The translations under genes were made by a program, and so were the position numbers. A model generated the notes under the pieces. That model did no database searches. It saw only the letters and a list, made by a program, of their open reading frames with translations, and was not told the DNA's origin. A DNA stretch of 64,000 nt. It comes from Cyanidioschyzon merolae (taxonomy: Eukaryota). The stretch lies in NCBI GenBank assembly GCA_000091205.1, contig AP006501.2, one strand, 5' to 3'. Shown here in pieces: positions 1,069 through 58,190 of the stretch; position 1 is the first letter of the stretch, and each line of letters starts with the position of its first letter.

Positions 1069-2360
1069 CATGAACACCAGGCTGTGCGGGATTTTTCTCC
1101 AACTGACTCTTTTTCCTCTTTCTCGTATCCGGCATGAAACACGCTGGTCACGGTTTCGCTCCAGCGCCGTTGTAGGCATGCAAACGATGTTGATGGCAGC
1201 GTGCAAGTCCCGATTTCGCCGATGCCGGCTCTCGTTCAAGCATTTCATTCGCACTCAACAATACCGCAAGCAACAGATCCTCTTTGTGTACCGTGTAGAC
1301 GCGCAGCTCGCACCGGTGTCACTCGACTGTGGTCAGGTGTTCCTGGAGGTCCGTCGCAGCGCCTCATGCTTCGAGCGCTGCACACGCGCCGGACCGGTGC
1401 AGAGGCCTCGCTTCGATGCCGTCCTCCGGTTCCGCGCCCGGTGCCGTACCCTGCGATCATGGGCTTCTTCTGGGTAAGACCTTCGGCGAGGACTCTGTCT
1501 GATGCATGCGCACGAGCACGCTGATCCCGTCGATAACGTTTGCGTCGGACGCGATGTTGCTCATGATGAAACAAGCACTGAAATGGAAATCGACGCTCGA
1601 GGATACGTCGACGACTTTTGCGCTGTCTACGCCGCCTCCATGTTGGGCGCTGACGCATGCTCCTTTGTGAGCGATCGCTGCGATGACTCGATTCCGATCC
1701 CAAGGCTCTCGCCGATGCAACCAGAAGCGTCGAGCGTTTCTGTGGGCGCATCCCGTGACAACTGTGATGCTGCTGTCGGAGGCCTTTTCGATGAAGGCCA
1801 CAAAGAAAGAGGCACTTGCGTATCGAACGGAATCGATGTGTTGAGGAGGCGAGCTCCGCGAACGCTCGGCAACAGCTCGTCATACAGTCGCTTACGGACG
1901 ACGGCAGTTCTTTTGTGTCGTCGTCACCATCATCGTCGTCGTCGTCGTCGTCGTCGTCATACCAGCAGCGCAAATCGCAGTGTCCATGAGTTGCTTTGAG
2001 GGACGCGCACCGAATCGCTGCAGAAAGCGTGATTTGACCAGAGCAACCGTTAGGAAACGAAAAGAGTGAACGAGCGTGCGGATACATTGGATCCTGGTAT
2101 CGATTGCTTTACGGTGCCCTGCTCGAAGGTGCCGTATGTTGTTTTCATGACGATGACGGAAGGAATTTCAGCACCAAGGATTCGGAAAAGCACACCCCGA
2201 GAAGACGCCCCAGAGTCTTAAACCTGCGTCTGTATCCGTGAGCCCGTATGGCTGCGCTGCGAATATCGAGGATTGTGATGTAGAAAAGTTCAATGAAAAC
2301 ATCAAGGCAGGAGCAGAGCGCGCACTTCAGTGTTCCCTACAACCCTTATACGAGTGCAGG
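1069..2360 (+). repeat. Copy A1 of a 1.3-kb near-identical direct repeat; its partner is 14733-16031. It contains a (GTC)8 run and low-complexity ORFs and has no recognisable coding content.
   Basis: ORF pairs are almost identical: 1245..2087 versus 14909..15748, 1457..1801 versus 15121..15465, and 1502..1999 versus 15166..15660. By DNA comparison the homology starts at catgaacaccaggctgtgcgg (1069 and 14733) and ends at cgagtgcagg (2360 and 16031). Differences are a 3-bp (GTC) indel and a few substitutions. Confidence 0.8.
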
Positions 2361-2809
2361 GGTATCGGCTCGAGGCGGCAAGCGCATAGATCGCGCAAAG
2401 GTGCCGTCTGCACAATTGGAGGTTGCACAGCGGTGCTGGCGGCTAGAACAAATCGCAAGCAGGCACCAACTTCTAGGCAACCGGCGCTGAGCGCTAGCGC
2501 ACGCCAAAAACCCTGCGGTACTGGCGGCACATGACGGGCTGCAGCGCCTGCATCAGCTGCGGACCCGCACCTATGATGCTGTGGTTGTACAGTGCGCCCG
2601 GAGTGCACCTCTCCCATACCGTTTACTGAACAGCACCTCCCATATGAAAATCATACACGCGAAGAACTATGGTACATGGATAGCGGAGAATAGGCGATGC
2701 AGGAGACCACGGCACGCTGGCGTCATCGAAAAGTAGAGAATGCTGCGTCGCGATGGGTAACGCTGAAACCCTTCTTCGCTGATGCACGACGCGAAGCACC
2801 CGCCCTGAT

Positions 2810-4312
2810 TCACACGTCCAAAACATGAAGGTTACCGGTAACCACGCAGTTCTCGAGCCGAGACCCCGCCGGAATATCAATAGACGCTCCCGGCTGGGCG
2901 ACAATGATGACCGTACCGCTCAGTTTGCAGCGTTTGCCGAAGCGCACACTGCCACTGACAGTTAATGACTCTAATTCTAAAATATCCGGCATACTCTCGA
3001 AACGGCTACTAAAGTCGCTCACTTTTTTGAATTCTGGACCCAACCGAATGACTGGCGTGCCGAGTTCAGCCGGACGCTCCGGATTCATACTAACATACCC
3101 CGAGACGATATTATAGAGATTACTTTGAATCAAGAGCAGATCGGATGTTGTCTTGACGGGCAGGAAACGGCTCCGTGGAACGTTAATACCCATGACGCGC
3201 TGGAAATGGGTAATGGCAGCACCCATAGCCGTCTCGAGCTGCAGCACGGTTTCGCCTTTCACAGTCTTCGTGTTGGGGATAATATCCAGCTCCATGGAGC
3301 CAGGTCCTCTGTCCATGATTCGCTTGAGCGCCTTGAGTTGGATCCACAAACTATTGGTATTGAATACTCGGAATTTGGATATGTTCTGGAAATCTCCCAA
3401 GTGCTCCTTATCGACCTGCGCGACTTCTAGCAACCTCGGCTTGCCTTGGTACGTGATCAGCGTGCCTCCTTTCCGATCGGAGCGAGTTCTCGTTGCCATT
3501 TCGATTGTAAATTCAACCTGATGATCCGCGATTGCTTTGAGAATCCGCGTATCCAAGGACGCTCCAAGGTTGTCACTGTTACTCACGAATATCCATTCCT
3601 TGCCCTCGGCGAGCAGCCGATCCAGCATGCCCGATTGCAGAAGCGCATCATACATGTCGCCGTGACCCGGCGGGTACCAGTCCTCCTTGTCGTACACTTC
3701 AGAGTCGAGGCACAGGGGTCGCAGTGTGTCGCGCACCAGACGCGGATACCTAGACTGCTGAAACGTACGAATCGGAATGAGATCCTCGTACTTTCGAATG
3801 ACTTTCAGTGTATCCGCATCCGTGTTAAAACTATTCATTAGGAGAAGAGGCACCTTGATTTGATACCGCTTGTTGATGGACTCGATCTGCTTCACGATAA
3901 TGTCCAAAAACGTCTGTCCCGAGCGGATTTCGATCACGGACTTGGGGCCCGAGCACCCCATCGAGGTGCCGAGGCCTCCGTTCAGCTTCAGTACAGCGAC
4001 GCGGCTTAGAAGCGCTCGCGCCTCAGTTTCGTTCGGTTCGGGTAGTTCTGCGTAGGGTCGCAATAGCTCCGCCGATGGCGGCTGGATCTGGTCCCAATCC
4101 AGTGCCGCGGACGCACTGGAGCGCGTCTCCAGGTACCGACCCAACAGGTGCACAAAACCCTGTTGTTCTGCTTCGCTCATGCGTGCACGTACGTCAGTCG
4201 CCCTTTCATTGATTTGACGTATTTCCTCCAACAGTGCCTTCTCCAGAGACTTGTCTGTGAGGTGAGCGAAGTTCGCAAAAGAGGCATCGTGGCTGGTTCG
4301 CACCAAAGGCAT
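2810..4312 (-). CDS. UTP--glucose-1-phosphate uridylyltransferase (UDP-glucose pyrophosphorylase), 500 aa, single exon
   Basis: UGPase signature LKLNGGLGTSMGCSGPKSVIEIR and overall UGP-family collinearity over 500 aa. Confidence 0.85.
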   Translation of the reverse strand: MPLVRTSHDASFANFAHLTDKSLEKALLEEIRQINERATDVRARMSEAEQQGFVHLLGRYLETRSSASAALDWDQIQPPSAELLRPYAELPEPNETEARALLSRVAVLKLNGGLGTSMGCSGPKSVIEIRSGQTFLDIIVKQIESINKRYQIKVPLLLMNSFNTDADTLKVIRKYEDLIPIRTFQQSRYPRLVRDTLRPLCLDSEVYDKEDWYPPGHGDMYDALLQSGMLDRLLAEGKEWIFVSNSDNLGASLDTRILKAIADHQVEFTIEMATRTRSDRKGGTLITYQGKPRLLEVAQVDKEHLGDFQNISKFRVFNTNSLWIQLKALKRIMDRGPGSMELDIIPNTKTVKGETVLQLETAMGAAITHFQRVMGINVPRSRFLPVKTTSDLLLIQSNLYNIVSGYVSMNPERPAELGTPVIRLGPEFKKVSDFSSRFESMPDILELESLTVSGSVRFGKRCKLSGTVIIVAQPGASIDIPAGSRLENCVVTGNLHVLDV

Positions 4313-13102: not shown

Positions 13103-13672
13103 TTTCTGATGACGAAACGATAACCATTGACCATGGATCCCAGAATTCGGGATGGATGGATGTATAATGGCTCTTGAAAAAGTGTCCATGATGAACCACC
13201 TACCTTCAAGTTCCAATAGCTATACTTCCTCTCGGATTTACTGGTCGTTTCGTATGTTCTATCGAGCGCCGAGTGCCTGCTGTGGGCACCCGCCGAAGCG
13301 CTTCCACCGCTGCAGCAGATGCTGCACGGCGACAGAACAGCTTTGCCATACCACTGAGAGCGTCGGCTCGAGACGTGGTTCATTCGATACGGGGCCGGAG
13401 TACATAGTAATTCTGGGAGCCTGCGACAGCGCGAACCGATCTACCAGGAGTCCACTGCGACCAGTGCGATGCCCAGATGCAGCTTTCCTGCGTCTAGTCC
13501 CAGAATGAACTGCTTTGCGAACGAGCTGCGCGGGTCTCTCCACAGCACCTGCCACTGGAGGGAGCATGAAGCACTCGTCTTGCAGACTCGTCCGGCTCGC
13601 GGACCTTCCGCTTAGGAGATTCACGTTCGGCAATGTAGAAAGCTTTCCATTCTTATAACGTTTATCGTAGCG
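13103..13672 (+). repeat. Copy X1 of a roughly 0.6-kb dispersed non-coding repeat family (the other copies are X2, X3 and X4)
   Basis: It aligns by eye with 39612-40206, 52028-52634 (reverse) and 57862-58190 at about 75-85% identity. The 5' end begins ttt(c/t)(c/t)gat(g/a)ac...ccatggatcccag, and the 3' end is ...agctttccattcttataacgtttatcgtagcg. Spurious ORFs that share SRIYWSFRMF..PSACC (13152..13508 and 52378..52662) are what revealed the family. Confidence 0.7.
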
Positions 13673-14732
13673 CGACCCGATGTCGTTGGTGGTACTGGCG
13701 CTGCCAAGCCCCGGAGTCCCGACTGCTGCCCCGGTATTTTCGGGACGACGGGGATCGATATTCAAGGAGCATCTGCAGTGTGATCATGATTTTGAACAGC
13801 GAGCCTGGCAAGGCCGCTTTCGAAGTGCCCCCAGCCGCTGCACCGTGGCACGGCTCGCGAATCGGCCGCTCCAGACGTTGCCTCTGGAGGTTGCGTTGAA
13901 TAAAAAACCGCAGTTCCTGTCCAATATCCTGAGAAAATCAGGATTATCACGAATCGCATGTATGGTTGCGTACAGAGGCGCTTGACGCAGTGTTCGGCGA
14001 CTGCTCCTGCGTCGTCGTGGACCTAAGAAGCGACGTTCGCAGCGCCTACCGCCGCGACTAGTATGGATACGCATCCGGCAGAGCGATGAATCCCTCGTAT
14101 ACGGGTAATCGCCAGCCAGCGGCCGGGATCCAATCATTACGATGCTTTTGCAGTCGACTCCTGTGGGCGCTCCCAGGGTTCGCATGCACTGTGTATCGTG
14201 CACATGCCCCGGTGCTGATGAGCGCTGGAGATGCCAGCAACTGGCAGCGTCCATGCATGCAAGGCATTCTGATCAGATTCAAGTATTTTTGGAAGATGTG
14301 CGGTTGCGGAATCGAACGGGGGATCTGCAGGTGCGCGATCTTTATCGGCATCGAGGGAGGCATCTATCATGCAGCAGTAGCGCAGAGTTTCATGGATCAC
14401 CACCTAGGCTTCCACTCGAAAAACATAGTCCATTCATACAAGCTTGTAGGTGCCGAGCCGACGATGAGTGCGTATAAAGACGCCAGTAGCACCGTTCAGG
14501 ACACTGCACGGAAGCGGAAGGGTTTTGGCGTTCCCGCGCTGGTGCGTCATCTCAAAGAGATGCGCGGATCCTATGTTGTAAACGTGACTGTGCAAGTATC
14601 GCAGCAGTTTAGGCCAGCAAACGGAACGACACGCGCGACTTTCGAGCATTTACACCCATACCAGATAAGAATGGTATGGGTAGATTCAATTCACAAGGGC
14701 ATCTACGCTAGAGTCCGGTCTCCAAGCATTGT

Positions 14733-16031
14733 CATGAACACCAGGCTGTGCGGGATTTTTCTCCAACTGACTCTTTTTCCTCTTTCTCGTATCCGGCATG
14801 AAACACGCTGGTCACGGTTTCGCTCCAGCGCCGTTGTAGGCATGCAAACGATGTTGATGGCAGCGTGCAAGTCCCGATTTCGCCGATGCCGGCTCTCGTT
14901 CAAGCATTTCATTCGCACTCAACAATACCGCAAGCAACAGATCCTCTTTGTGTACCGTGTAGACGCGCAGCTCGCACCGGTGTCACTCGACTGTGGTCAG
15001 GTGTTCCTGGAGGTCCGTCGCAGCGCCTCATGCTTCGAGCGCTGCACACGCGCCGGACCAGTGCAGAGGCCTCGCTTCGATGCCGTCCTCCGGTTCCGCG
15101 CCCGGTGCCGTACCCTGCGATCATGGGCTTCTTCTGGGTAAGACCTTCGGCGAGGACTCTGTCTGATGCATGCGCACGGGCACGCTGATCCCGTCGATAA
15201 CGTTTGCGTCGGACGCGATGTTGCTCATGATGAAACAAGCACTGAAATGGAAATCGACGCTCGAGGATACGTCGACGACTTTTGCGCTGTCTACGCCGCC
15301 TCCATGTTGGGCGCTGACGCATGCTCCTTTGTGAGCGATCGCTGCGATGACTCGATTCCGATCCCAAGGCTCTCGCCGATGCAACCAGAAGCGTCGAGCG
15401 TTTCTGTGGGCGCATCCCGTGACAACTGTGATGCTGCTGTCGGAGGCCTTTTCGATGAAGGCCACAAAGAAAGAGGCACTTGCGTATCGAACGGAATCGA
15501 TGTGTTGAGGAGGCGAGCTCCGCGAACGCTCGGCAACAGCTCGTCATACAGTCGCTTACGGACGACGGCAGTTCTTTTGTGTCGTCGTCACCATCATCGT
15601 CGTCGTCGTCGTCGTCGTCATACCAGCAGCGCAAATCGCAGTGTCCATGAGTTGCTTTGAGGTACGCGCACCGCATTGCTGCAGAAAGCGTGATTTGACC
15701 AGAGCAACCGTTAGGAAACGAAAAGAGTGAACGCGTGTGCGAATACATTGGATCCTGGTATCGATTGCTTTACGGTGCCCTGCTCGAAGGTGCCGTATGT
15801 TGTTTTCATGACGATGACGGAAGGAATTTCAGCACCAAGGATTCGGAAAAGCACACCCCGAGAAGACGCCCCAGAGTCTTAAACCTGCGTCTGTATCCGT
15901 GAGCCCGTATGGCTGCGCTGCGAATATCGAGGATTGTGATGTAAAAAAGTTCGATGAAAACATCAAGGCAGGAGCAGAGCGCGCACTTCAGTGTTCCCTA
16001 CAACCCTTATACGAGTGCAGGCCTGCGTTAC
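14733..16031 (+). repeat. Copy A2 of the 1.3-kb direct repeat; it carries (GTC)7
   Basis: See A1. The coordinate offset to A1 is 13664 at the start and 13671 at the end. Confidence 0.8.
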
Positions 16032-17536: not shown

Positions 17537-19002
17537 AGTGTACCAGCGCCTGCCGCTACGTCAGAGGCCTCCAGACGCGTTGACCCCTGGGCCGCGTGCT
17601 GCTGCGCAGCAGGTTGCGCAGGGGCGTGTGTCGCGATGTCACGGAAGCGATCCGAGGAGTCACATTCGCGTTGAATCTGGCTGTTGAGCGACGTTGTACA
17701 TAAGGGACACAGCGTCGTCCGCACGCAAGCAGGCGTATCGAGCGCAGCGGAATTAATTTTACGCCCCGATGGGCGTTCAGTGCCAGCTCTTTGAAGAACA
17801 CGGTATGAAACTGAACTTTTTTGTCCTGATCCTGGTGACAGTCCTCTGGTACACGATTCATCTGAAAAACGGTATCATCATGCACATTCTTGGTCGTGAT
17901 CCTGGGCGCAGTCGCCCGGTCTACGATCCTATTTGATACAGTGCTGCCAGCAGCGGTCTTTGGTCTGCCATCCGACTCGTCGAAACGCACGCCGGGCCGA
18001 CGTATCAAGATCGTCCGGTGATATCGCTGCTGGTGCAGTCATGGTGCATGCATCCGCGCGTACTGGTCGGCATAGGAGGTTCGGTCGCTGCGTCTCTGAC
18101 GTTTACGGACGAATATAGGTCAAGTGGTGATTCGAAGAATCTTCTGGCGGAAAACACGTGCCTTCAACGGGACGTCTCTCGATGTGGGTTACCTTTGTGC
18201 GAAGCTATTCGTATGGATGCTGTTCTTCGCCAATCCTTGTGCAAGGAATCTGCGCTTATCGTGCAACGATGCAAGGACGGTTCGCGACCTGTATGTGCGG
18301 ATTTCGTCCACAGACGCTTGCACGCTGAACCACATCAATGGAAACTGCGGTTGCGACAAATGTGCACCAACTGAGCCGCGTGGTGCTCATGGTCAGGCCC
18401 CTGGAACCCTGGACGATCAAGATGATCCTATTTGGTGACAGGTTGATATCCAGCGCATCTCTTTGCGCGAGAATGACTTGGTGGCACTTGCATGAGGCAC
18501 GCTAAACGTAATCGTTCGCGGGAATCCAGTCAGTTGGACGTGCTGAATTTCGAAGCAGGACACTATGCAAAACGAAGCAAGTTCAGGTGTTCGGTTGTAG
18601 ATCAGGACGACACACGAAACATGGGTGCTGCATCGCACACGTATCTACTCTGTGGCAGCCTTGGACAAGAGTCGCCATTGGTTTAGCGTGATTGCTAGAG
18701 AGCGCTTGGATTACCAGGATGCCGTAGCCGGCATTCGTTGCTCCATCGAAGGTACACGGCTGGATTTCGCCAAGGCATTTTGCGGAGGCTGCGCTCCCGG
18801 CTCTTGACCCGCGAGCAGCGAAATGAAACAGCGAAACCGGTGATAATGGCCTGTTTGAGACCTGTGTAACAGACGCTGCTGGGAGCAACGCGGCAAGGCG
18901 GCCTCCTGCAAAATTCAAGCACCGATTCTGGTTGTGCGTCGAAGAGCTGACGAAGAAGTTTCTATGTATTCTTTGCGCACATGAAGCATACGGCATCCAC
19001 AG

Positions 19003-19645
19003 GGAAGGAGACCAAGGCTCAGATACACGAAAAGCATCGCATAGTGTACCCATAATGCATACCGTTTAGAAAATAGAGGAGATCAAGGCTCAGGTGCACG
19101 AAAAGCATCGCATAGTGTACCCATAAAGCATACCGTATAGAAAATAGAGGAGATCAAGGCTCAGGTGCACGAAAAGCATTGCATAGTGTACCCATAAAGC
19201 ATACCGTATAGAAAATAGAGGAGACCAAGGCTCAGGTGCACGAAAAGCATTGCATAGTGTACCCATAAAGCATACCGTATAGAAAATAGAGGAGATCAAG
19301 GCTCAGGTGCACGAAAAGCATTGCATAGTGTACTCATAAAGCATACCGTTTAGAAAATAGAGGAGATCAAGGCTCAGGTGCACGAAAAGCATCGCATAGT
19401 GTACCCATAAAGCATACCGTATAGAAAATAGAGGAGACCAAGGCTCAGGTGCACGAAAAGCATCGCATAGTGTACCCATAAAGCATACCGTATAGAAAAT
19501 AGAGGAGATCAAGGCTCAGGTGCACGAAAAGCATCGCATAGTGTACCCATAAAGCATACCGTATAGAAAATAGAGGAGATCAAGGCTCAGGTGCACGAAA
19601 AGCATCGCATAGTGTACCCATAAAGCATACCGTTTAGAAAATAGA
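19003..19645. repeat. Tandem array of about 9 copies of a 71-bp unit (gatcaaggctcaggtgcacgaaaagcatcgcatagtgtacccataaagcataccgtatagaaaatagagga), located upstream of the ABC1 kinase gene
   Basis: The period of 71 is read directly from the sequence (gatcaaggc at 19081, 19152 and so on). Copies differ by single substitutions. ORFs 19090..19299 and 19303..19512 are periodic artefacts of this array. Confidence 0.85.
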
Positions 19646-19873
19646 GCATAGAGGCGATCGCGCTGCCTCCCGAATGGCAGCGTTACGCCCGGCGATGAGC
19701 CTCATGTTCTTATGAGTGCTGATCCAGGATTGCCGAGGAACCTCCTCCTGAGCCAACACCGGCGTTTGCACTACTTGCCCTTGTACGTCTGAAAACGGAT
19801 GGGCTGCTGAATTGCACATGAAGGTAGCATTTCTCAAAATCTGTAGGATAGCTAGGACGTTTGTGGCTGTTTT

Positions 19874-23281: not shown

Positions 23282-23307
23282 TGCGGCATCGCGATACGCG
23301 CATGCGG

Positions 23308-24300
23308 ATCGACTGATCTGGAATGCTAGTGACCTGGTATTTTATCGATTAATTGATTGATTGATCAGGTACTAGATAAACTGATGAATGGATACATGGA
23401 TCAGGTATTCGATCGATTGCTAATGTATTCGATGATTCGATTGATTGATCATGTACTAGATAAACTGATGAGTGGATACATGGATCAGGGATTCGATCGA
23501 TTGATCCAGAATGCTAGTGACCTGGTATTTTATCGATTGATTGATTGATTGATCAGGTACTAGATAAACTGATGAATGGATACATGGATCAGGTATTCGA
23601 TCGATTGCTAATGTATTCGATGATTCGATTGATTGATCATGTACTAGATAAACTGATGAGTGGATACATGGATCAGGGATTCGATCGATTGATCCAGAAT
23701 GCTAGTGACCTGGTATTTTATCGATTGATTGATTGATTGATCATGTACTAGATAAACTGATGAATGGATACATGGATCAGGAATTCGATCGATTGCTAAT
23801 GTATTCGATGATTCGATTGATTGATCATGCACTAGATAAACTGATGAATGGATACATGGATCAGGGATTCGATCGACTGATCCAGAATGCTAGTGACCTG
23901 GTATTTTATCGATTGATTGATTGATTGATCATGTACTAGATAAACTGATGAATGGATACATGGATCGGGGATTCGATCGACTGATCCAGAATGCTAGTGA
24001 CCTGGTATTTTATCGATTGATTGATTGATTCATCATGTACTAGATAAACTGATGAATGGATACATGGATCGGGGATTCGATCGGTTGATCTGGAATGCTA
24101 GTGACCTGGTATTTTATCGATTGATTGATTGATTCATCATGTACTAGATAAACTGATGAATGGATACATGGATCGGGGATTCGATCGGTTGCTAATGTAT
24201 TCGATGATTCGATTGATTGATCATGTACTAGATAAACTGATGAATGGATACATGGATCGGGGATTCGATCGACTGATAAACGATTCGGCTGATCGATTCT
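23308..24300. repeat. Tandem array of roughly 1 kb: about 5 copies of a 188-bp unit, each unit built from two related 94-bp sub-repeats, plus (TTGA)n. It sits in the divergent intergenic region between the TauE-like and MFS genes
   Basis: In-frame periodic ORFs 23357..23548, 23545..23736 and 23733..23924 start exactly 188 bp apart and have identical translations. The sub-units are tgatca[gt]gtactagataaactgatga[ag]tggatacatggatcagg.... Confidence 0.85.
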
Positions 24301-24703
24301 AGGATCGCTATACGCGAATGCCGGGTACCGGTGACCCGGAAAAGTGTTACAGTTCCTCTTCGGGTGCTTCTGCTTTCCAATAACCCCGCAGCAGCATGTC
24401 CTTCATGAAAACGTACTTGAGCGCTCTGGAAAGTCTTCGGCCGCTGTACAGAGCTGACACGGTTCAGTGGTGTCTTTGTAAGCGTCGACACGACCACAAT
24501 AGCAGTGGACAGACTCGCGTCTCGCGGACGGGCTCCAGGGCGCACACGCCAACATCCGAGACAACCCTTGAGCGGATGCGGTGCATCCACATGTCGATGC
24601 TATACAGGCGTCACCATAGGCACACGAGTTCGCGAACCACAGCGCTGCGACAGCGCTGCGGTGCACAGGGTGTCGCATCAGCGAGTGCCCTGAACAAGGA
24701 CAA

Positions 24704-28504: not shown

Positions 28505-28994
28505 AACGGACAGCTCAGGCAAAAGTGCTCGCTACCCGCGGCAGCACCCATGCGCCTCTGGCTGCTGGGTGTGCACGGCAGCAGGAAGCTGGGTAAACGG
28601 AGCCGTCGCCAAGAAAACGGCAATGGCTTCACTGACGACTTGGATGGCGGTGGTGACTCCTGGCGTTGGTCACGTCGCAACTGCTGGAGCATGTTCGCCA
28701 CATCGCGCTCGTCGATGCCAAGCATGCTGCGTAGGCTCCAGATGCATGCCCCCCAGCCGTAGAGGAAGAAGCCCCAGCCAAACCCGACCTGAAGCCCACA
28801 ACCAACGCCCACGGAGAGCTGAACCGAGGGCACGTAGAAGGCTCCGAACGTCTTGCCGACGCCGACCCCACAACCCACATAAAACCCAGAACCGACACCC
28901 AGTCCCGAGAACACAGTTGTGGCCGGCTCGTCACGGTACCGTACTTGGCTAGTCATGCAACCTGCCGGTATGCAGCCCGCTCAAACACCTGCCC

Positions 28995-29375
28995 GGTACC
29001 CGCCACTACCAGTAGTTTGCGCTGATTCGTCTTGTGGTTCAAAGCCTCGGCCGAGCAGAATTTCCAAGTACCACGTGTATCCTAGGGTACTTTCCGCCAC
29101 TACCGGTAGTTTGCGCTGATTCGTCTTGTGGTTCAAAGCCTCGGCCGAACAGAGTTTCCAAGTACCACGTGTATCCTAGGGTACTTTCCGCCACTACCAG
29201 TAGTTTGCGCTGATGCGTCTTGTGGTCCAAAGCCTCGGCCGAGCAGAGCTCTCACGTACCACGTGTATCCTAGGGTACTTTCCGCCACTACCGGTAGTTT
29301 GCGCTGATTCGTCTTGTGGTTCAAAGCCTCGGCCGAGCAGAGTTTCCAAGTACAACGCTTGTTTCAAAGTACTCT
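28995..29375. repeat. Tandem array of 4 copies of a 95-bp unit (ccgccactaccagtagtttgcgctgattcgtcttgtggttcaaagcctcggccgagcagaatttccaagtaccacgtgtatcctagggtactttc). It lies about 440 bp outside the left inverted-repeat arm
   Basis: Unit starts are at about 29001, 29093, 29188 and 29282, giving 95% or higher identity between copies. Confidence 0.85.
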
Positions 29376-29809
29376 CTGTCGCTCGCTGCGCGTGCTGGCC
29401 AGGTACTAGGACATCTAGTGCATGTTGCGGTACGCGAGTTCCGTTGACAAGTGCAAGATGAATGTATTCGATCAGAGTTCATCAGGAGGTTACGCATGCG
29501 GTTTCAAAGGTGTCGCACTCATGTACTGGACCAGAGTGTACCATGAAATGGAAACCTTGCCCAAAGCAGGGCAGGGACCTCAGTTCATTCAGACGCATGC
29601 AGGATTGATGAAATCCGACAGCGTCTTTCCCTCGGGAACAGGGGCCGGCCGCAGTGTGCAGCTACGACTACGACTACTACTACAGCAGCAGCAGCTGCTG
29701 CTGCTGCTACTGCTGCATGTGCCAGTACCGCAGTAATGGAGCAGCATCGCAACTGGTGTTGACATCAACACCTCCCGGTGCCATTTCATGACAAAATGGA
29801 ATGAGTCTG

Positions 29810-31150
29810 ATCAGGTAAGTCGCTCGAGAGCAGACGGTAAAGTCTGGGTACCTTTTCAGTATGATCGATACCTGCTTCCGCCGGCTATCTCTGCAGCTTG
29901 TGCGTTTTGCGCGCTCTGTGCTCCATCTTTCCTCATGCCGAGTGCTGCCGCTACCTCAACTCTATTGTCAACAGGCGAAGCATGGTGATGCCCACATGAA
30001 ATTCCCATTTTCGCAGCTATGGACTGCTATTCACGCATTTCATGCACAGGTGAAAGTTGCCATGCACACGTCGCCTGCCAAATTCATCTTCTCTGTCGAT
30101 CGAGTCGATGCACCCTTTGCGGCCATGATCCTTGCCTGCGATCAAGTGCGCTCCTGTGTCCGACGCACATGCTTCACCAAGGGCCGCTCTGTTGCACAAG
30201 AGCGCTCGCTTCACTGCTCGTTACGTGCACATGGTGGGTACGTAGCGCGCGACTCCATGTCGTGCTCGGGTTCCATATCCGGTGACGCACGCTACGATGA
30301 CGGGCATCTTCAGCGGAATCCCACGGCGAGCGGTTCTTCTCTGTTGCACACGCAAGCGAACGCTATTCCATTCGAAAGGGCGTTTGTAGAACGCGATCAT
30401 GGCCATGATAAAATAGGTTCCGGAAGGAAGACTCGGGCTCGAGAACAAGTCGCGCGTGCGCAATCCATCGACGCTCCGCCGGTGCGAAGCGGTAAATGAA
30501 CGGATGTATTCCGGAGGTGATCTCTGTGTGGTGACTCGAGTCCGACTCCAAGCCTCATTCCCATACATACAGAAGAGACGGCATCCTCTGGGCGCAAATC
30601 CTGTGACAGGTACGATGCGACTGCGGAACGCGCCTTCGACGTCAACCAGAAAGAGCGGAACATGCTTCTATCGAAGCAAATCGATTACTTGAGGAGACGC
30701 GTTGCGTGCACTTTCGGCATGAGCTTCTCTACGCACTGTCATAGGGTGGTATCGGGTTTTCTGTTGTTTCATCGTCGTTCCAGCGTCGCGAATCGCTTCG
30801 CTGTCGAGTAGCCTTGAACCGGAAAGATCGAACACGTGCAGCAGGCGTGATTTGAGGACGCTCGGCCTAGGGACAAGAGACGAGTGAAGGCCTCTACGTA
30901 TGCACCGCATCATGATATCGGTTATTTTAGGATCCGTTGTTGCGTAGTGTCGCGAAGCATCTTGGTTCGCGGGACGTCATCAGGATCATCGGCAAAGCGT
31001 CGAAGGTACCGCTCCGAAATGACGACCGAGCTAGAAGCCCTAAAAGCTACGTATGCACCCGTGAGCCTTCGCTGCTATATTTTGAATGTCAGGGCGGAAT
31101 ACCTATGAAAAGTTCCGGATATATTGACGGGGAGAAATACAGCGAGCTGT
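29810..31150 (+). repeat. IR-L, the left arm of a 1.34-kb inverted repeat that is near-identical (about 99%) to 45637-46975
   Basis: ORFs 29861..30499 and 30937..31329 are mirrored by 46288..47022(-) and 45389..45850(-). Position pairs sum to 76787 (29861+46926; 30937+45850). Direct DNA comparison puts the outer edge at aagtcgctcgagagcagacgg and the inner edge at ggggagaaatacagcga. There are about 5 amino-acid-changing substitutions across the arm. Confidence 0.8.
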
Positions 31151-38935: not shown

Positions 38936-39511
38936 GCCTCTGGGGTCAGATGCAGTTCCCCTGTGCAGCTGGACGGAACGTACGCCCTAAAGCACGATTT
39001 TGACGCGTTCAAGCGGTTGCTTTCGACGCTGTGGATACTGGCAACAGCCACGGCAACGCTCGCGCACCGCAAGAGGCAGCCTCCAGCGCCGTCACGCTCC
39101 AGCTCTGAGTCGTGATAGCTCGGTGATGATTACTCGACCGTACTCAACGTGCACAGCGGCCTCCAACTTTGATCGAATCAAACGCCAGGTAGCAATCAGC
39201 GACAACGTCTGGAGGCAACGCACAAACCTGTCGATAACTGCGCTCACCTTTGTGGACTCGACTGAACACCTGAATAACAAACACCAGCTATCAGTCAACG
39301 GCACTTCCCGGACACAAGGTACAAAGTACTCGATAAGCGGCGCCACCGGGTGCCAAGTCCGATTCGAACCTGGATCAATAAATACCAGATAAGAGAGGCA
39401 AAGTTTTTGCAAGCACAACGATCAAAGTGCTCGATAATAATAATGATAACGATGAGAATGATGGGAATGATGGGAATGGACCTCACTGATTGCCTCGGAT
39501 TCGAAACTGGA

Positions 39512-39579
39512 CGCCCGCGGCCGCGCCGCGGGCGGATGACACGCAGCGCGCGCCGCGAGCGTTCCCCCGCGGGGGGAAC
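39512..39579. other. Two strong GC hairpins that lie outside the repeat homology, at the GC-to-AT composition transition
   Basis: The first is cgcccgcgg-ccgcg-ccgcgggcg (9-bp stem, 39512-39534); the second is gttccccc-gcg-gggggaac (8-bp stem, 39561-39579). Both are perfect palindromes read directly from the sequence, and they lie 30-100 bp 5' of repeat copy X4. Confidence 0.5.
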
Positions 39580-39611
39580 CCCGGGTGCCGTGCGACGCCC
39601 ACGAAGTGATC

Positions 39612-40206
39612 TTTTTCGATAACAAGACGTTTATATGGACCATGGATCCTTTGTTGCTGGATCGGTAATGATATTCGAAAGAGCATCGATCGTAGTGATG
39701 CAGATCATTTCCAAGTTCCATTACTTTTACTTCCTTTCCGATATAATGGTCGTTTGTGCGTTTTCGCGTACCGCGAGTACCTGCAGTATGCATCCGCTTT
39801 AGCGCTTATAGCGCAGGTCAGGATACAGCACGGAGACAGAAGGGCTTTTCCGTACCACGAAGGGCGTCGGCTGGAGGTCTAGTTTGCCCGACACGGTGTT
39901 GGAGTCCATGATCATGCTGGGAGCCTGCAAGCTGCGCAGACGGACGCACTGCATGCGGCAGCGTGAATGGATATCGTAGGGGTCCACTACGACCAGGGCG
40001 AAACCTAAACGCAGATTACCTGCTCCTAGTCGCTGAAAGAACAGCGTTGCGAATGAGTTGCGCACATCTCTCCACAGCACCTGCCACTGGTCGGGAGCAC
40101 GAAGCACAAGCTCGGCTGACTCGTCCGGCTCGCGAGACCTTCGGCCTAGAGGGTAAACATTCGACAATATGGTAATCGTTTCCCCCGTTTAACGTATATC
40201 GTAACT
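39612..40206 (+). repeat. Copy X4 (full length, 595 bp) of the dispersed repeat family. It directly abuts (23 bp) the start of the island ORF
   Basis: It aligns along its whole length with X1 and X2, for example ccatggatcctttgttgctggatcggtaatg against ccatggatcccagaattcgggatggatggatg, and gggagcctgcaagctgcgcagacgg against gggagcctgcaagcttcgcagatag. Its 3' end is gtttaacgtatatcgtaactgg. Confidence 0.7.
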
Positions 40207-40228
40207 GGGGAAATAAATTGGTATTGGA

Positions 40229-41983
40229 TTGCCAGATAGTAGTGAGTTTCGGTTCTTTGTTCGATACAGTGCGGTCGACAGGCGCACCTGGGAGATCTGG
40301 CAGTCACGAGGGAACGAAAGCCACGCAGATTACCGCCTCAACGGTACTCGATACAGAGATAACGGGGATATTTATGCCTGCGGGGCGATTGAGTGCGTCA
40401 CGTACCTGAAGAAACATTTGACCATGAACCCCGAACGTTTCATGATACGCTCCATCTTTGCACTCTACCCAGGTCTCGTTCGCAAAGGGATATGGATTAT
40501 CGTCGATGGCATCTTTAACGATAGTAAGAATGAAGAGAAGATCGAATTCGTCGACGAGAAGGCATCAAGCAGGCGAAGGAATGAGGCTTCTGTAATCTGT
40601 GCGGCTGTTCAAGAGCATCGTGAAGTCTTGGGGCTGGCCAATCCAACAGAAGAGATATCAGAGTTGAAAAACGATGAAGAAAGATACCATCCCCTCATCC
40701 TGTGCTATTTCGTGTTTTTGGACGGAGAACTCGAACGCGAGTCCGAAACGGAGCTGGGCGTGCGGAAAAATGAACTGTCGGAGAGACGAAAGGCTCCGCT
40801 TCTGGGGAACCACGTCAGTGTCGTTCCGTTATACAGCATCAACTCGCACGTTGTGTCTATCAGTTCCAGAGTCCTTCATGGCATTATCAGGGAGATCTGT
40901 TCGGAATTCAGCGTAAGCAGGGAGGAGTTCACCGGCGAAAATCGGGAGACGTACTGGAAGAACATCTTCGATTCCAGACGTCAGAAAGTTAGCAAGCAAA
41001 AGGTATTTACTGGGATGATCGAAACCGATGGGGTAGCCATTTGTGTACACCATCGACACTTGAAGGTGGATCGTTCTATTATGTCTTCGGCTTCGCCCGT
41101 GACGACGAATGAAGATGAGAAGGGGGCGGGTCCTGCGACGCAGAAAGTGCATAAAAACGACTTTGTCGTTGGTGCGGCGAAGCATGAAGATGAGAAGGAG
41201 GCGGCTCCTGCGACGCAGAAAGTGCATAAAAACGAGTTTGTCGTTGGCGTGGACCCTGGGACTACGAATATCATAACCATCGCAGAATCCAAGCGTGCAG
41301 AAGATGGTATTTACGGCAACCTACGTCAGAAAGACATGCGTCTGTTGAGGTTCTCGAGAGCGAGATAGTATCGAGAATCGGGAAACATGAATGCGAGGAA
41401 GAAAATTGCTGCATGGAATGCAGGAATGAAGGAGCACCTGGAAGCTATGAGCAAGGTGACGAGCCGCGGAGCGGACTTTGACGCTTTTCGGGAGTTCATG
41501 GAAGTTCGCATTGCGCATTGGGATGCGCTGTGGGAGGAGTATACAAAGCCCCGGTGGGCTCGTTTGCGTATGAACCTGTACTGCGGGAGGCAGCGTGCAT
41601 TTGCGAATTTTTTCAATGCGTTGAGCGCCTTGAAGGAGGACGAAAGTCAGAGGCTCGTAGTAGCGTACGGAGCAGGGCGCTGGAAGACCCAAAAAGGGAC
41701 TAGGCCAGCTCCAACGACAAGAACGTACAAGGAATGTGCACGGCGTTTTGCTACGATACCGATCGATGAGTTCCGAACATGGTATACACACCATGAACTG
41801 GGGCGTACAATTCAGAGGGTCAAGATGGAAACGTGTCAGCGGAGCCCTGAGGATATAGCAAAGTACGGACCGCTGACGGAGGAGCAAATGGAAAGGCGAG
41901 CGAAAGTGCGAGGGCTACTTACATCAGTAAGTACAACCAACGACGGCAAGAAACGTATGGAGTTTGGGAATCGTGAATTTTAA
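40229..41983 (+). pseudogene. 585-codon reading frame in a lower-GC island, split by a single in-frame TAG at 41366-41368 (ORFs 40229..41368 and 41387..41983 are in the same frame). The product has a tandemly duplicated 23-aa segment followed by [15 protein letters not shown], a candidate RuvC/RNase-H-fold nuclease first strand of the TnpB/Fanzor, IS110 or RuvC kind. It is either a pseudogene or a readthrough gene; the family is unverified
   Basis: The ORF is about 48-50% GC against 60-65% in the flanks, and its amino-acid usage is K/E/N/I-rich. The segment [52 protein letters not shown] fits G-[IV]-D-x-G-x-x-N (RuvC GIDPG; TnpB GIDLG; Cas12a GIDRGERN). Downstream, QRLVVAYGAGRW is beta-4-like but has no Glu. 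No CxxC..CxxC ribbon and no D-x-NAA motif was found. Confidence 0.4.
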
Positions 41984-42292
41984 CTCCGCTATCAATATAA
42001 AGAGATGTGCGGTGATGGAAACAAGACCTCCGGCGTTGACACGAAGGAGTTTTGTGGGACAACCTCTCAAAGTGGAACTATATGAGAAAAAATTGAAGCC
42101 AATTGTAGGTAGCCAATCCAAAAAAGCGGGGAGGCGTCTGCACCTCAGTTGGAGACGTTTTATCTGAAGCGCGTTTGCCGCCACTACCGCATACCGCTGC
42201 GGCCAGTGTTTTTCTTTTGAGAGACGTTTGTTTTCAGGGGTGCTGTCCCTAGCATTCCGTTTCGGGAGCCGTTCGTAAGATAGGTACGTTCT

Positions 42293-44852: not shown

Positions 44853-45636
44853 ATGTGAATCCTATAGAAGACAAAACACAGGAAGAGATACGCGCGCGCG
44901 CTCGGAACCTGCATGTCGTCCGCAGGGGTGCACGCATGTTGTGCGCGTCACGGATCGTGCTGTGATGGCGCCATCTGCGTGTAGATTGCGAACGTGACAT
45001 ACGGATGATACGCTTTCAGCTCAATTGTATTCCGCATACGTGTGTGTGTGTGTCATGAAATGCTTTTTCATTGTGTACGGCAGATGCCATGAAACTGGGA
45101 TCATTTGGTGAAATAAAGTCTTAGGGAGGGGTACGGACATCAAAGTCGGGGATCCTGGAGAACCCGGCGTTGCCGGCTGCCAGAAAAACAAGGGAAGAAT
45201 CGTCATTTTGTCGAGTATCGAGCGAAGAAGAGCAAGTGAAGGAAAAGACGCAGAGGGGAAATATGCGAGAAAAAGTGTTTGCCCGACATGACGGTGACGA
45301 GACTCCAAAGGTACAGAGAGCGCGAATTCTAGCAATCCTTGCACTGGTTTGTTGAAATAGAAGCATGAAACGCAAGAAGTTGGTGAAGCTAGACGTCAAC
45401 GCCACAATCAATACAAGACAGTGTGCTTTGCTGAAGACGAGATCCGCGGAGCTGAGGCGGTCCAGCTTCGTGGGACATCCTCTGATACTCGAAGCGGGCC
45501 TGGAGAGAAAGTGAAGCGGATACCACGCGGCAATTCAAAAGAGGCTGAGAGGCGTCTGCGCCTCGGTATTCATTTATCCTCCATGTTCGTGATCTATTCT
45601 TTGTTTCATTGACATGTCTATAGGATAGAACACGCA

Positions 45637-46975
45637 GACGTTCGCTGTATTTCTCCCCGTCAATATATCCGGAACTTTTCTTAGGTATTCCGCCCTGACA
45701 TTCAAAATATAGCAGCGAAGGCTCACGGGTGCATACGTAGCTTTTAGGGCTTCTAGCTCGGTCGTCATTTCGGAGCGGTACCTTCGACGCTTTGCCGATG
45801 ATCCTGATGACGTCCCGCGAACCAAGATGCTTCGCGACACTACGCAACAACGGATCCTAAAATAACCGATATCATGATGCGGTGCATACGTAGAGGCCTT
45901 CACTCGTCTCTTGTCCCTAGGCCGAGCGTCCTCAAATCACGCCTGCTGCACGTGTTCGATCTTTCCGGTTCAAGGCTACTCGACAGCGAAGCGATTCGCG
46001 ACGCTGGAACGACGATGAAACAACAGAAAACCCGATACCACCCTATGACAGTGCGTAGAGAAGCTCATGCCGAAAGTGCACGCAACGCGTCTCCTCAAGT
46101 AATCGATTTGCTTCGATAGAGGCATGTTCCGCTCTTTCTGGTTGACGTCGAAGGCGCGTTCCGCAGTCGCATCGTACCTGTCACAGGATTTGCGCCCAGA
46201 GGATGCCGTCTCTTCTGTATGTATGGGAATGAGGCTTGGAGTCGGACTCGAGTCACCACACAGAGATCACCTCCGGAATACATCCGTTCATTTACCGCTT
46301 CGCACCGGCGGAGCGTCGATGGATTGCGCACGCGCGACTTGTTCTCGAGCCCGAGTCTTCCTTCCGGAACCTATTTTATCATGGCCATGATCGCGTTCTA
46401 CAAACGCGCTTTCGAATGGAATAGCGTTCGCTTGCGTGTGCAACAGAGAAGAACCGCTCGCCGTGGGATTCCGCTGAAGATGCCCGTCATCGTTGCGTGC
46501 GTCACCGGATATGGAACCCGAGCACGACATGGAGTCGCGCGCTACGTACCCACCATGTGCACGTAACGAGCAGTGAAGCGAGCGCTCTTGTGCAACAGAG
46601 CGGCCCTTGGTGAAGCATGTGCGTCGGACACAGGAGCGCACTTGATCGCAGGCAAGGATCATGGCCGCAAAGGGTGCATCGACTCGATCGACAGAGAAGA
46701 TGAATTTGGCAGGCGACGTGTGCATGGCAACTTTCACCTGTGCATGAAATGCGTGAATAGCAGCCCATAGCTGCGAAAATGGGAATTTCATGTGGGCATC
46801 ACCATGCTTCGCCTGTTGACAATAGAGTTGAGGTAGCGGCAGCACTCGGCATGAGGAAAGATGGAGCACAGAGCGCGCAAAACGCACAAGCTGCAGAGAT
46901 AGCCGGCGGAAGCAGGTATCGATCATACTGAAAAGGTACCCAGACTTGACCGTCTGCTCTCGAGCGACTTCCCTG
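45637..46975 (-). repeat. IR-R, the right arm of the 1.34-kb inverted repeat; it is the reverse complement of 29810-31150
   Basis: See IR-L. The SGF29 gene start (47088) lies about 110 bp outside its outer edge. Confidence 0.8.
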
Positions 46976-51237: not shown

Positions 51238-52027
51238 GAACAGAACACTGTACGCAATTGGGTGGATACAGCTCCTGGACACCGGCGAAGAACCTGACGA
51301 GAAACGTGCACAACGATTTGGATGCGGGGCAGCGCATTTGCAGCTCGCTGCATCTGTGCGAGCGCTGCAGTGCGCTTGGATTCGAGAAGCGGTGCGGCGC
51401 TCTGCGATATCAGGTACGGTACACCGGGGTCTTGGTGTCTCCCAGCGTCAAGTGAATGGTGAAAGATTCATATCCCGAGTGTCGCACGTACCTGCGTTGA
51501 GACAGGATCGCTCAGCAGCAGTGGGAGCACCGAGCATCGACATCGTGCAAGTTGTCTTCGGCGCCCGTGTTGCCAGATACAAGTGTACTCTGACGTGTGC
51601 TCCGCATGGACCATGCACAAATGTTTGGAGTGGTATAGCGTACATGGAGTCAAGGGAACGACGCTGCCCGCATTCATATGGAAAGCGTGTTTTAGAGGAG
51701 TGCAGCTGAAAAGGCACCGAGGCATACGCAGTTCTGTGTGTTGCTTACTGGGATGCGTCGCAGGGCTCCGTACCGCATGGCGTATTCTTGGAGATATTCG
51801 GACAAGTATATTTTTTCTCAGCATGTCATGCAGAGATCGTGACGTCACAACATACGCTGAGATATTCTCTATATCAGCATTTGCACAGTAGATAGGTTAA
51901 GAGAGATCTGCGTGATGAAAAGCAGCTCTACGTATTCTTGTCGTCAGCATTTGCGCAGTAGGGTATTCTAGGTGTATAAAAAAAGAACAGAAAATAACCT
52001 CTAACTGGCAATGCGACAACAGTGTCG

Positions 52028-52634
52028 CTCGACCTCTGTGGTAAGCGTTGAAAGAGGGAAAGGTTTCTATATCTTCGAAAGTTTACCCTCCAGGCAGAAT
52101 GTCCCGCGAGTCGGACGAGTCTGCCAGACCAGTGCTTCATGCTCTCCCTCAGTTGCGGGCGCTGTTGTGAGATCTACGCAGCTTGTCCGCAGCGCAGTTT
52201 ATTCTGGGACTTGGAGCGGGTAGCGTGCTTTTAGGCTTCGCCCTGGTCGCAGTGGACTCCTAGTGGATCGCTTCGCGCTGCCGCAGGCAGGGCGTCTATC
52301 TGCGAAGCTTGCAGGCTCCCAAAATGATTCTGTACTCAGACACCGTGTCGCGCAAACTACGCCTCGGGCCGATGTCGTCAGTGGTACGGGAAAGCCGTTC
52401 TCTCTCGGTGAAGCATCCGCAACAGCGGTTTGTGCAGCGATCGCGGACGATCACAGCAGGCACTCGGCACACAAGAGAACATACGAAACGACCAGTATAT
52501 CCGAGAATAACTATAAGTAATGGAAGTCCGAGGTAGGTGCAGCTTCATAGAAACTTTCCCGAAAGCCAGTATCCATCGATCCTGCAATCTGGGGTCTACG
52601 GTCAATGGATACCATGTTGTTGATTGAGAAAAAC
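52028..52634 (-). repeat. Copy X2 of the dispersed repeat (607 bp, reverse orientation), about 100 bp upstream of the TPS ORF. A short degenerate ~70-bp tandem duplication lies at 51800-51970 in an adjacent AT-rich patch
   Basis: Its reverse complement aligns with X1 and X4 along the full length, for example ggagtccactgcgaccagggcgaagcc, cccagaataaactgcgc and agcatgaagcactggtctggcagactcgtccgactcgcggga. Confidence 0.7.
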
Positions 52635-57861: not shown

Positions 57862-58190
57862 TTTCCGATGACACAACACATTCACAGTGACCACGGATTC
57901 CAGACTTCGAACTGGATATTGACATTCGGGAAAGCGTCCATCATGTTGCCACACCTTACCTCCAAGTTCTATGATGCATACTTTCTTTCGGACGTGCTGG
58001 TCGTTTTTGTGCGTCCTATCGCGCGCCTAACCCTCTTTGAGCACCCGCCCCAGCACCTAATCCGCCAGAGCAGATACATCATGGAGACAGAACCGCTTTG
58101 CCATACCACGGACGATATCGTCTCGATGGTGCGGAAACCGAGGCGGTTTCCATTGGCCCGCACCCAGGTTGCAGCGGGTGCTGTTCTTCA
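57862..58190 (+). repeat. Copy X3, a 5' fragment of about 330 bp of the dispersed repeat. It is truncated near the 3' end of the downstream gene
   Basis: ttttccgatgacacaacacattcacagtgaccacggattccag aligns with the X1 5' end, and gaaccgctttgccataccac aligns with gaacagctttgccataccac. Confidence 0.6.

Follow-up and report, generated by a model that had tools for sequence, protein, structure and literature searches.

A low-GC interval of the Cyanidioschyzon merolae genome is very probably a degenerate copy of the Fanzor1 element CMe-1A

What is the low-GC interval that separates two divergent genes on Cyanidioschyzon merolae contig AP006501.2 (assembly GCA_000091205.1), and does it carry a working gene? 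In the 64,000-nt stretch that was analyzed (the window), a composition profile gives GC fractions of 0.49–0.55 over ∼39.0–42.3 kb compared with 0.60–0.65 in the flanking genes. The interval belongs to the divergent intergenic region 38936–42292, between an ankyrin-RING gene on the minus strand (start 38935) and an ORF of 337 aa with its ATG at 42293. A previous reading made from the sequence alone had located the dip at 39.1–42.3 kb and found in it one long frame (40229–41983, 585 codons) with a single in-frame TAG at 41366–41368; both observations stand. It took the frame for a degenerate nuclease gene of the RNase-H/RuvC fold on a mobile element and named a eukaryotic TnpB/Fanzor-like gene, an IS110-like gene and a member of an undescribed family as options. 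Fanzor1 proteins are eukaryotic descendants of TnpB, namely RNA-guided DNA endonucleases with a RuvC fold and a D-E-D triad, whose function and structure were established in 2023–2024. We conclude with little room for doubt that positions 39617–42226 (plus strand) are an internally deleted, degenerate copy of CMe-1A, a Fanzor1 element of ∼3.2 kb without terminal inverted repeats (TIRs) that occurs ∼150 times in C. merolae. Of the three options the TnpB/Fanzor-like one was therefore correct. Both the CMe-1A family with its Fanzor1 gene and its occurrence in the C. merolae genome are already known from a publication of 2013 (PMC3627910), and the idea of an undescribed family has to be dropped.

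CMe-1A was described by Bao and Jurka (2013, Mob DNA 4:12, PMC3627910) as an element of 3169 bp, whose ∼150 C. merolae copies are ∼80% identical to the consensus. It encodes a single-exon Fanzor1 protein of 734 aa (CMe-1) and has no TIRs, its target-site duplications (TSDs) were left undetermined, and TE-N2_CMe, a non-autonomous element, is the same sequence as its 5′ 635 bp (PMC3627910). The consensus DNA (supplementary file 2 of the same paper) was aligned to the window by blastn and yielded three segments on the plus strand: consensus 1–687 at window positions 39617–40310 (78% identity), 1333–2196 at 40314–41177 (83%) and 2120–3169 at 41176–42226 (88%). The last two segments overlap in the consensus (2120–2196) because the window copy has an extra 75-bp repeat unit. 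From base 1 to base 3169 the copy is collinear with the published element at 78–88% DNA identity, and both published termini are kept according to blastn and base-level alignment. The two also share the TE-N2_CMe 5′ module and the lack of TIRs; a repeat search of the window found no inverted repeat between the element ends. The window copy differs from the published element in the loss of consensus 688–1332, a second 75-bp unit, a TAG, a frameshift and a Glu in the RuvC-III motif. On the protein level, the conceptually repaired window product (645 aa) is identical to CMe-1 residues 143–734 at 457 of 617 positions (74%, BLASTP), and the CMe-1 protein of the supplement carries verbatim the same motifs as the alignment of homologues of the window copy. 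The element begins at 39617 and not at 39100, where the sequence-only reading had placed its start; the DNA at 39100–39616 is unique, intergenic and outside the element. The 5′ part (39617–40310, plus strand) is non-coding and represents the CMe-1A module whose first ∼635 bp match TE-N2_CMe. It had been taken for a dispersed repeat fused to the 5′ side of the gene; it is indeed repeated, with further copies in the window, but represents the element's own 687-bp 5′ module rather than a fused foreign copy. An antisense ORF of 122 aa in this module (39799–40167) was rejected as a gene, as it is not open in the CMe-1A consensus.

The motifs of the encoded protein are those of a Fanzor1 nuclease. 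Hallmarks of this group are the sequence DPG in RuvC-I, a catalytic Glu in an alternative position and the sequence TDG in the WED domain (Yoon et al. 2023, PMC10711439). The GVDPGTTN motif that the sequence-only reading had pointed out lies at 41246–41269 (plus strand) and is the Fanzor DPG motif of RuvC-I; its catalytic Asp codon (41252–41254) corresponds to the invariant D484 in the numbering of the intact homologue P0002. RuvC-II is represented by IDEFRTWYTHH with the Glu codon at 41768–41770 (plus strand; invariant E656 of P0002). This Glu, six residues ahead of the first zinc-finger position, occupies the alternative position of the Fanzor1 pattern D-E-[FY]-x-T-[ST], and in a profile search the motif aligns with LIDEFRTS of PpFz and LLDEYKTS of SpuFz1. 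The RuvC-III motif (41969–41999, plus strand) is disrupted at 41975–41999: it reads NREF/NSAINI, where the slash marks a frameshift, in place of VNRDFNAAINI in homologues, and thus N-R-E-F/N-S-A-I-N-I is the counterpart of the Fanzor1 pattern R-D-x-N-x-A-x-N. The WED motif is present as IETDGVA; within the family D359 and G360 never vary and T358 hardly does. The sequence-only reading had seen neither a RuvC-II Glu nor a D-x-NAA-type motif nor a CxxC ribbon. Whereas no CxxC..CxxC arrangement exists, the other two motifs are there and were missed because the frameshift hid them. Directly upstream of the RuvC-I strand the copy carries two units of a 75-bp (25-aa) tandem repeat (41103–41177 and 41178–41252, plus strand). 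A ‘perfect’ duplication of 23 aa had been reported here; the duplication is real, but it is not perfect, with 91% DNA identity and agreement at 17 of 20 residues in the block quoted. Across the family the number of 25-aa units ranges from 1 in the consensus to ∼6 in homologue P0009, and the region is predicted to form a disordered linker (pLDDT <50 for residues 375–471 of the AlphaFold model of P0002).

A comparison with the consensus reveals several lesions. At the deletion junction (40310–40314, plus strand), consensus 688–1332 is gone and with it the 5′ UTR, the ATG (consensus 906) and codons 1–142, an N-terminus that homologues P0002, P0041 and P0051 retain. By our reading of the sequences, the two breakpoints have the pentanucleotide CACGA in common as microhomology; the deletion may have occurred before or after insertion of the element. 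The Fanzor1 pseudo-ORF then runs from 40314 to 41983 on the plus strand, with CMe-1 residues 143–673 in its first frame (tblastn, 74% identity). In base-level alignment a consensus TAC (Tyr) has become the premature stop TAG at 41366–41368 (plus strand), which is also present in a metagenome contig (L001/P0005). Further downstream, the RuvC-III motif is interrupted by a +1 frameshift, which a 1-nt insertion in the T-run 41978–41981 has caused, and its Asp codon has changed from GAC to GAA (Glu). We suspected this frameshift because after the TAA at 41981–41983 the +1 frame continues with NSAINIKRCAV... up to a TGA at 42165–42167. These C-terminal 62 codons (41982–42167, plus strand) match CMe-1 residues 672–734 with 75% identity in tblastn. 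Other conserved residues have changed as well: Trp replaces Ser in RTSY, Arg replaces Cys in HHELGC and Val replaces the Ala that precedes DPG. An active Fanzor1 protein needs an intact D-E-D triad and an open reading frame, and the window copy has neither. Because of the N-terminal deletion, the TAG, the +1 frameshift and the Asp to Glu exchange, the window copy is a pseudogene that cannot make a Fanzor1 protein, which agrees with the earlier suspicion that the gene is inactive. It is a typical deletion derivative or relic of its family: independent deletion derivatives that keep both termini were found (L025, L064 and L062/63), and full CMe-1A copies, 3318–3442 bp long, contain two to five repeat units but no additional gene. 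Contig L001 is 99.3% identical to the window over 6 kb, flanks included, and has identical lesions. Since the identity is this high throughout, flanks included, L001 belongs to the same population as the window and is no diverged orthologue.

The repaired product was used as query in a search for homologues, which yielded 63 close matches with E-values down to 2e-259, nearly all of them gene calls from JGI metagenomes. These homologues carry ∼140–170 additional N-terminal residues compared with the window copy. Their alignment crosses both the TAG (Tyr in the homologues) and the frameshift without interruption; it includes GADPGNTNIITIA, VDEFRTSYTHHELGC and FVNRDFNAAINIRKCAV, and the catalytic motifs take the form GADPGNTN, VDEFRTSYTHH and VNRDFNAAINI. 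The JGI metagenome contigs hold at least 320 related copies in a handful of samples, which suggested an organism with many copies. Exhaustive searching with a profile extended the family to 1805 cluster representatives at E ≤ 1e-3, those with names being from the green algae Tetrabaena and Haematococcus. Among 38 diverse members D484 (DPG), E656 (DEF), R724, N727, A729 and N731 are invariant and D725 nearly so, columns that form the setting of the D-E-D triad. A profile restricted to the narrow family (A1) gave no real match to sequences in the PDB; matches appeared only when the diverse relatives were added (A3). Profile A3 then hit the solved Fanzor1 proteins of Parasitella (9cf0, 3.5e-19), Spizellomyces (SpuFz1, 8gkh, 2.4e-14) and Guillardia (GtFz1, 9cer, 1.8e-7), and these alignments bring the D, E and RD catalytic motifs into register. 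An AlphaFold model of the intact homologue P0002 was built from the diverse alignment; a shallow alignment (A2) gave a pLDDT of 44.6 and was discarded. The final model has a pLDDT of 79.4 and a pTM of 0.76, is disordered only in the tandem-repeat linker (375–471) and shows the Fanzor1 architecture of WED, REC, RuvC and NUC domains. When this model is compared with the PDB by Foldseek, Fanzor1 structures take all of the first seven ranks (E 2.5e-16 to 1.2e-13, probability 1.00, TM up to 0.75), and Cas12 proteins and Fanzor2 come next. The RNase-H fold that the sequence-only reading had proposed to check by structure prediction is predicted for the intact homologue, and its idea of a degenerate RuvC-fold nuclease gene on a mobile element was right.

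In detail, the model of the CMe-1 homologue has the same overall fold as the solved structures of SpuFz1 (8gkh, 9ceu–9cez), PpFz (9cf0–9cf3) and GtFz1 (9cer), with Foldseek E-values of ∼1e-16 and a TM of up to 0.75. The RuvC motifs DPG, D-E-[FY]-[RK]-T-S and N-R-D align between the solved proteins and CMe-1, and the WED motif TDG is present in both. In contrast, sequence identity between the solved proteins and the CMe-1 clade is 13–15%, and the variable 25-aa tandem-repeat linker before RuvC-I sets the clade apart from them. Bacterial TnpB proteins of IS200/IS605 and IS607 elements, such as ISDra2 TnpB, represent the ancestral RuvC D-E-D nuclease and, like Fanzor1, take their RNA from the right end of the element. 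CMe-1 differs from them in that a TnpA partner is missing, the insertions in REC/WED are much larger, the Glu takes the alternative position and a zinc ribbon is absent.

Several observations weigh against the assignment to Fanzor1. The structural model is that of P0002, which is 61% identical to the repaired product at 90% query coverage, and not that of the window copy itself. The Pfam searches that had been recommended for the conceptual product returned nothing significant: the curated models of the Pfam copy searched, which lacks PF26935, matched neither the window product nor pieces of it nor six intact homologues, and the TnpB models (OrfB_IS605, Cas12f1-like_TNB) stayed below threshold for the window product and these six. 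One distant relative scored below the Pfam cut-off for PF07282 (E=0.0023, 18.5 bits versus 26.3). The sole precomputed Pfam label of the homologues P0001–P0063 is PF26935 (DUF8286), a domain that appears to match part of the Fanzor1 protein; a search of the literature turned up neither functional work on a C. merolae Fanzor nor any mention of DUF8286. Folded together, the 3′-terminal 300 nt of 21 copies give a weak common structure (RNAalifold −11.6 kcal/mol, 2 compensatory pairs) that is not convincing as an omega-RNA. Finally, no CCCC zinc finger separates RuvC-II from RuvC-III. Such a finger is common to SpuFz1 and TnpB (PMC10432273) and lies in the NUC/TNB domain of the solved Fanzor1 proteins, whereas the CMe-1 clade has HHELGC...C without a second Cys pair; window and consensus read THHELG[C/R]...C in this region (41759–41999) and contain no CxxC. 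Of the 56 clade members in which both flanking motifs are present, 55 have no CxxC either, so that the missing ribbon characterizes the clade and does not stem from decay of the window copy. Because it lacks the CCCC finger, we classify the CMe-1 clade as atypical Fanzor1 with predicted nuclease activity.

Transcription of Fanzor1 guide RNAs (omega or reRNAs) covers the element 3′ end and continues into the flanking DNA, and characterized Fanzor1 relatives cleave guide-matched DNA next to a short target-adjacent motif (TAM). By homology to the solved proteins, with their omega-RNA-guided cleavage of double-stranded DNA (dsDNA), intact CMe-1 proteins would be RNA-guided dsDNA endonucleases whose guide runs from the element 3′ end into the flank. 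The 59 nt that follow the stop codon in the window copy finish in a hairpin of 8–10 bp with its 3′ arm at the published terminus: GTTTTTC-tttt-GAGAGAC at 42208–42225 (plus strand), one base before the published end. In folds of the individual sequences this hairpin is predicted for nearly all of 20 copies. There are two sequence variants of it, CGTTCGA-ctt-TCGAACG and CGTTTTTC-tttt-GAAAG[GA]CG, with compensatory changes (e.g. GTTCTA/TAGAAC). The hairpin could be part of the guide-RNA scaffold or serve as a transposition signal. The 17 nt past 42226 (TTTGTTTTCAGGGGTGC) are shared with the unrelated copies L015 and L070, and unrelated copies in general stay similar for 10–17 nt past the published end, reading TTTGTTGTYG or TTTSTTTYCAGGGGTRC (L008, L015, L017, L024, L027, L045, L056, L063 and others). 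Because this similarity extends beyond the published end, the true 3′ terminus of CMe-1A probably lies slightly further out, at ∼42243 in the window.

The flanks of the element are rich in T. Among 13 non-redundant copies, positions −7 to −2 of the 5′ flank are T in 9–12 and position −1 in 7 (background 0.22); in these copies and in the window (39605–39616) the pattern is TTTTT[TC] directly before CGATGAC. On the 3′ side, positions +1 and +2 are T in 20–21 of 22 copies. This suggests a preference for insertion at T-runs or a TAM. TSDs were not definable from the 13 left and 22 right non-redundant ends. Similar features are known from CRe-1, CRe-2 and CRe-3 of Chlamydomonas reinhardtii, which are non-autonomous Helitron2 elements (PMC3627910): like CMe-1A they carry Fanzor1 only, have no TIRs, end in a 3′ hairpin and are frequently found as truncated or deleted copies. 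They insert after TTTT, comparable to the T in 9–12 of 13 CMe-1A copies at positions −7 to −2, and chlamydomonad algae, to which their host belongs, also harbor relatives of the CMe-1 clade (Tetrabaena, Haematococcus). The CRe genes have 5–10 exons, in contrast to the single exon of CMe-1. Inspection of CMe-1A by eye gave no convincing case of the asymmetric terminal inverted repeats of Helitron2, and the RepHel protein was not searched for. In flanks and hairpin CMe-1A resembles the Helitron2-borne Fanzor1 elements of Chlamydomonas, a likeness that does not assign it to their class. A more far-reaching proposal, to which we give a slim chance, combines these features: the CMe-1 lineage and its large algal clade may be a zinc-finger-less Fanzor1 variant on a TIR-less, Fanzor-only element with a 3′ hairpin and a T-run preference, moved by a mechanism that depends on the hairpin (Helitron2- or HUH-like) or kept by Fanzor-mediated homing. 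The relic in the window, with its intact 3′ end 50–67 bp before a host ATG, might then supply a guide-RNA-like transcript or a promoter.

The last point leads to the question whether the relic has been exapted. In that case its 3′ part would act as promoter or 5′ UTR of the 337-aa gene, or an omega-RNA-like transcript would be used in trans by an intact CMe-1 Fanzor. The element is oriented like the downstream ORF in the divergent intergenic region, and because its 3′ end lies only 50–67 bp from the ATG at 42293, part of the promoter or 5′ UTR of this gene may fall inside the relic. The element has kept its 3′ end intact, terminal hairpin included, and the same copy recurs at 99.3% identity in the independent metagenome contig L001. 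However, an identity of this degree over the whole 6 kb with flanks shows the same population only and not selection, and disabling changes have accumulated as in neutral DNA; we consider exaptation unlikely. The recurrence of the locus in L001 might also be expected if it were a normal gene of the host, present once and with a local fluctuation in composition. Yet L001, identical at the same level throughout, comes from the same organism rather than being a diverged orthologue, the sequence occurs in many copies (four more fragments in the window, hundreds of copies elsewhere), and the ORF is truncated, stopped and frameshifted. The probability of a normal host gene is close to nil. Equally negligible is the chance of a transposase with a different RNase-H fold, whether IS110-like (DEDD) or otherwise not Fanzor, and a partner of the bridge-RNA type. 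The superficial likeness of G-V-D-P-G to the first-strand motifs GIDxS/GIDxG is the only point in its favor, while Pfam gave no match to DEDD_Tnp_IS110 or any other transposase, profile and fold searches returned Fanzor1 and then Cas12/Fanzor2 but no IS110 protein, and RuvC-II and RuvC-III have motifs like those of TnpB/Fanzor.

The low GC content itself had been read as the sign of an island that arrived recently by horizontal transfer from a lower-GC donor. At first sight the values agree with this: the element has a GC fraction of 0.506, compared with 0.60–0.62 in the neighboring genes (0.604 and 0.619 for the two flanking ORFs) and 0.574 in the window as a whole; that of the CMe-1A family consensus is 0.523. 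However, non-genic DNA of the window is already at 0.545, and at third codon positions the frame 40229–41983 has a GC fraction (GC3) of 0.571, which is within the host range of 0.52–0.69. The deficit is confined to codon positions 1–2 of a protein rich in K, E, N and I, an enrichment that the sequence-only reading had noticed and that is evident when the frame is compared with 19 long ORFs of the host in the window (K 6.3 versus 2.0%, E 9.9 versus 5.4%, N 4.6 versus 2.5%, I 5.5 versus 3.1%). As GC3 lies within the host range and non-genic DNA is at 0.545, the low GC content is not evidence of foreign origin; it is a property of the K/E/N/I-rich Fanzor1 coding sequence. Furthermore, CMe-1A is an old resident, because the genome contains ∼150 diverged copies (∼80% to the consensus) and related metagenome contigs contain at least 320; the window copy is 12–22% diverged from the consensus. 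A recent lower-GC donor is therefore very unlikely, and a decayed copy of a resident Fanzor1 element remains the reading that we prefer.

Four other CMe-1A-related fragments lie in the window. Two are solo 5′ modules of the TE-N2_CMe type, at 13108–13670 on the plus strand (consensus 2–582, 78% identity) and at 51975–52607 on the minus strand (consensus 18–644, 80%), and one is a truncated 5′ module at 57866–58126 on the plus strand (consensus 1–254, 78%). These three solo copies within 64 kb show that the 5′ module moves or is duplicated on its own. The fourth is a much older, strongly decayed remnant of the Fanzor1 C-terminus at 45314–45567 on the plus strand (blastn to consensus 2890–3092, 68%; tblastn to CMe-1 645–705, 46%). 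It sits in another low-GC patch (44.75–45.75 kb), which abuts the arm of an inverted duplication that starts at 45642. The two arms of this duplication (29812–31145 and 45642–46975; 1334 bp, 99.5% identical) enclose 14.5 kb of host genes. They are the 1.34-kb inverted repeats that had been proposed to bound the element; they are unrelated to its termini, have no similarity to CMe-1A and occur in only two copies in the data examined.

Just 5′ of the element, at 39420–39600, the otherwise unique intergenic DNA contains a short AT-rich microsatellite of the type (AATGAT/GGGAATGAT) and the GC-rich palindromes CGCCCGCGGCCGCGCCGCGGGCGG and CCCCCGCGGGGGG. Elsewhere in the window, tandem arrays were observed at 18909–19776, 23307–24378 and 28906–29469 (71-nt period, 84/104-nt spacing and 94-nt period, respectively), as well as a pair of direct repeats (1068–2219 and 14732–15880) that are 97–100% identical and ∼13.66 kb apart. 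Scans with Rfam models and for tRNAs gave no matches in the window. The ORF at 2810–4312 on the minus strand is 100% identical over 500 aa to the UTP-glucose-1-phosphate uridylyltransferase (UDP-glucose pyrophosphorylase) of C. merolae 10D in the NCBI protein record, which independently confirms the host.

With the CMe-1A family and its Fanzor1 gene on record for C. merolae since 2013, the locus has little value as a discovery. It is useful for calibration, as a RuvC-I strand of the DPG type was spotted in raw sequence while a frameshift concealed the other two catalytic motifs. For the curation of the family three points emerge: DUF8286 is the only Pfam label that its proteins carry, the clade is one without the CCCC zinc finger, and both the published 3′ end and the insertion-site preference of CMe-1A could be refined.

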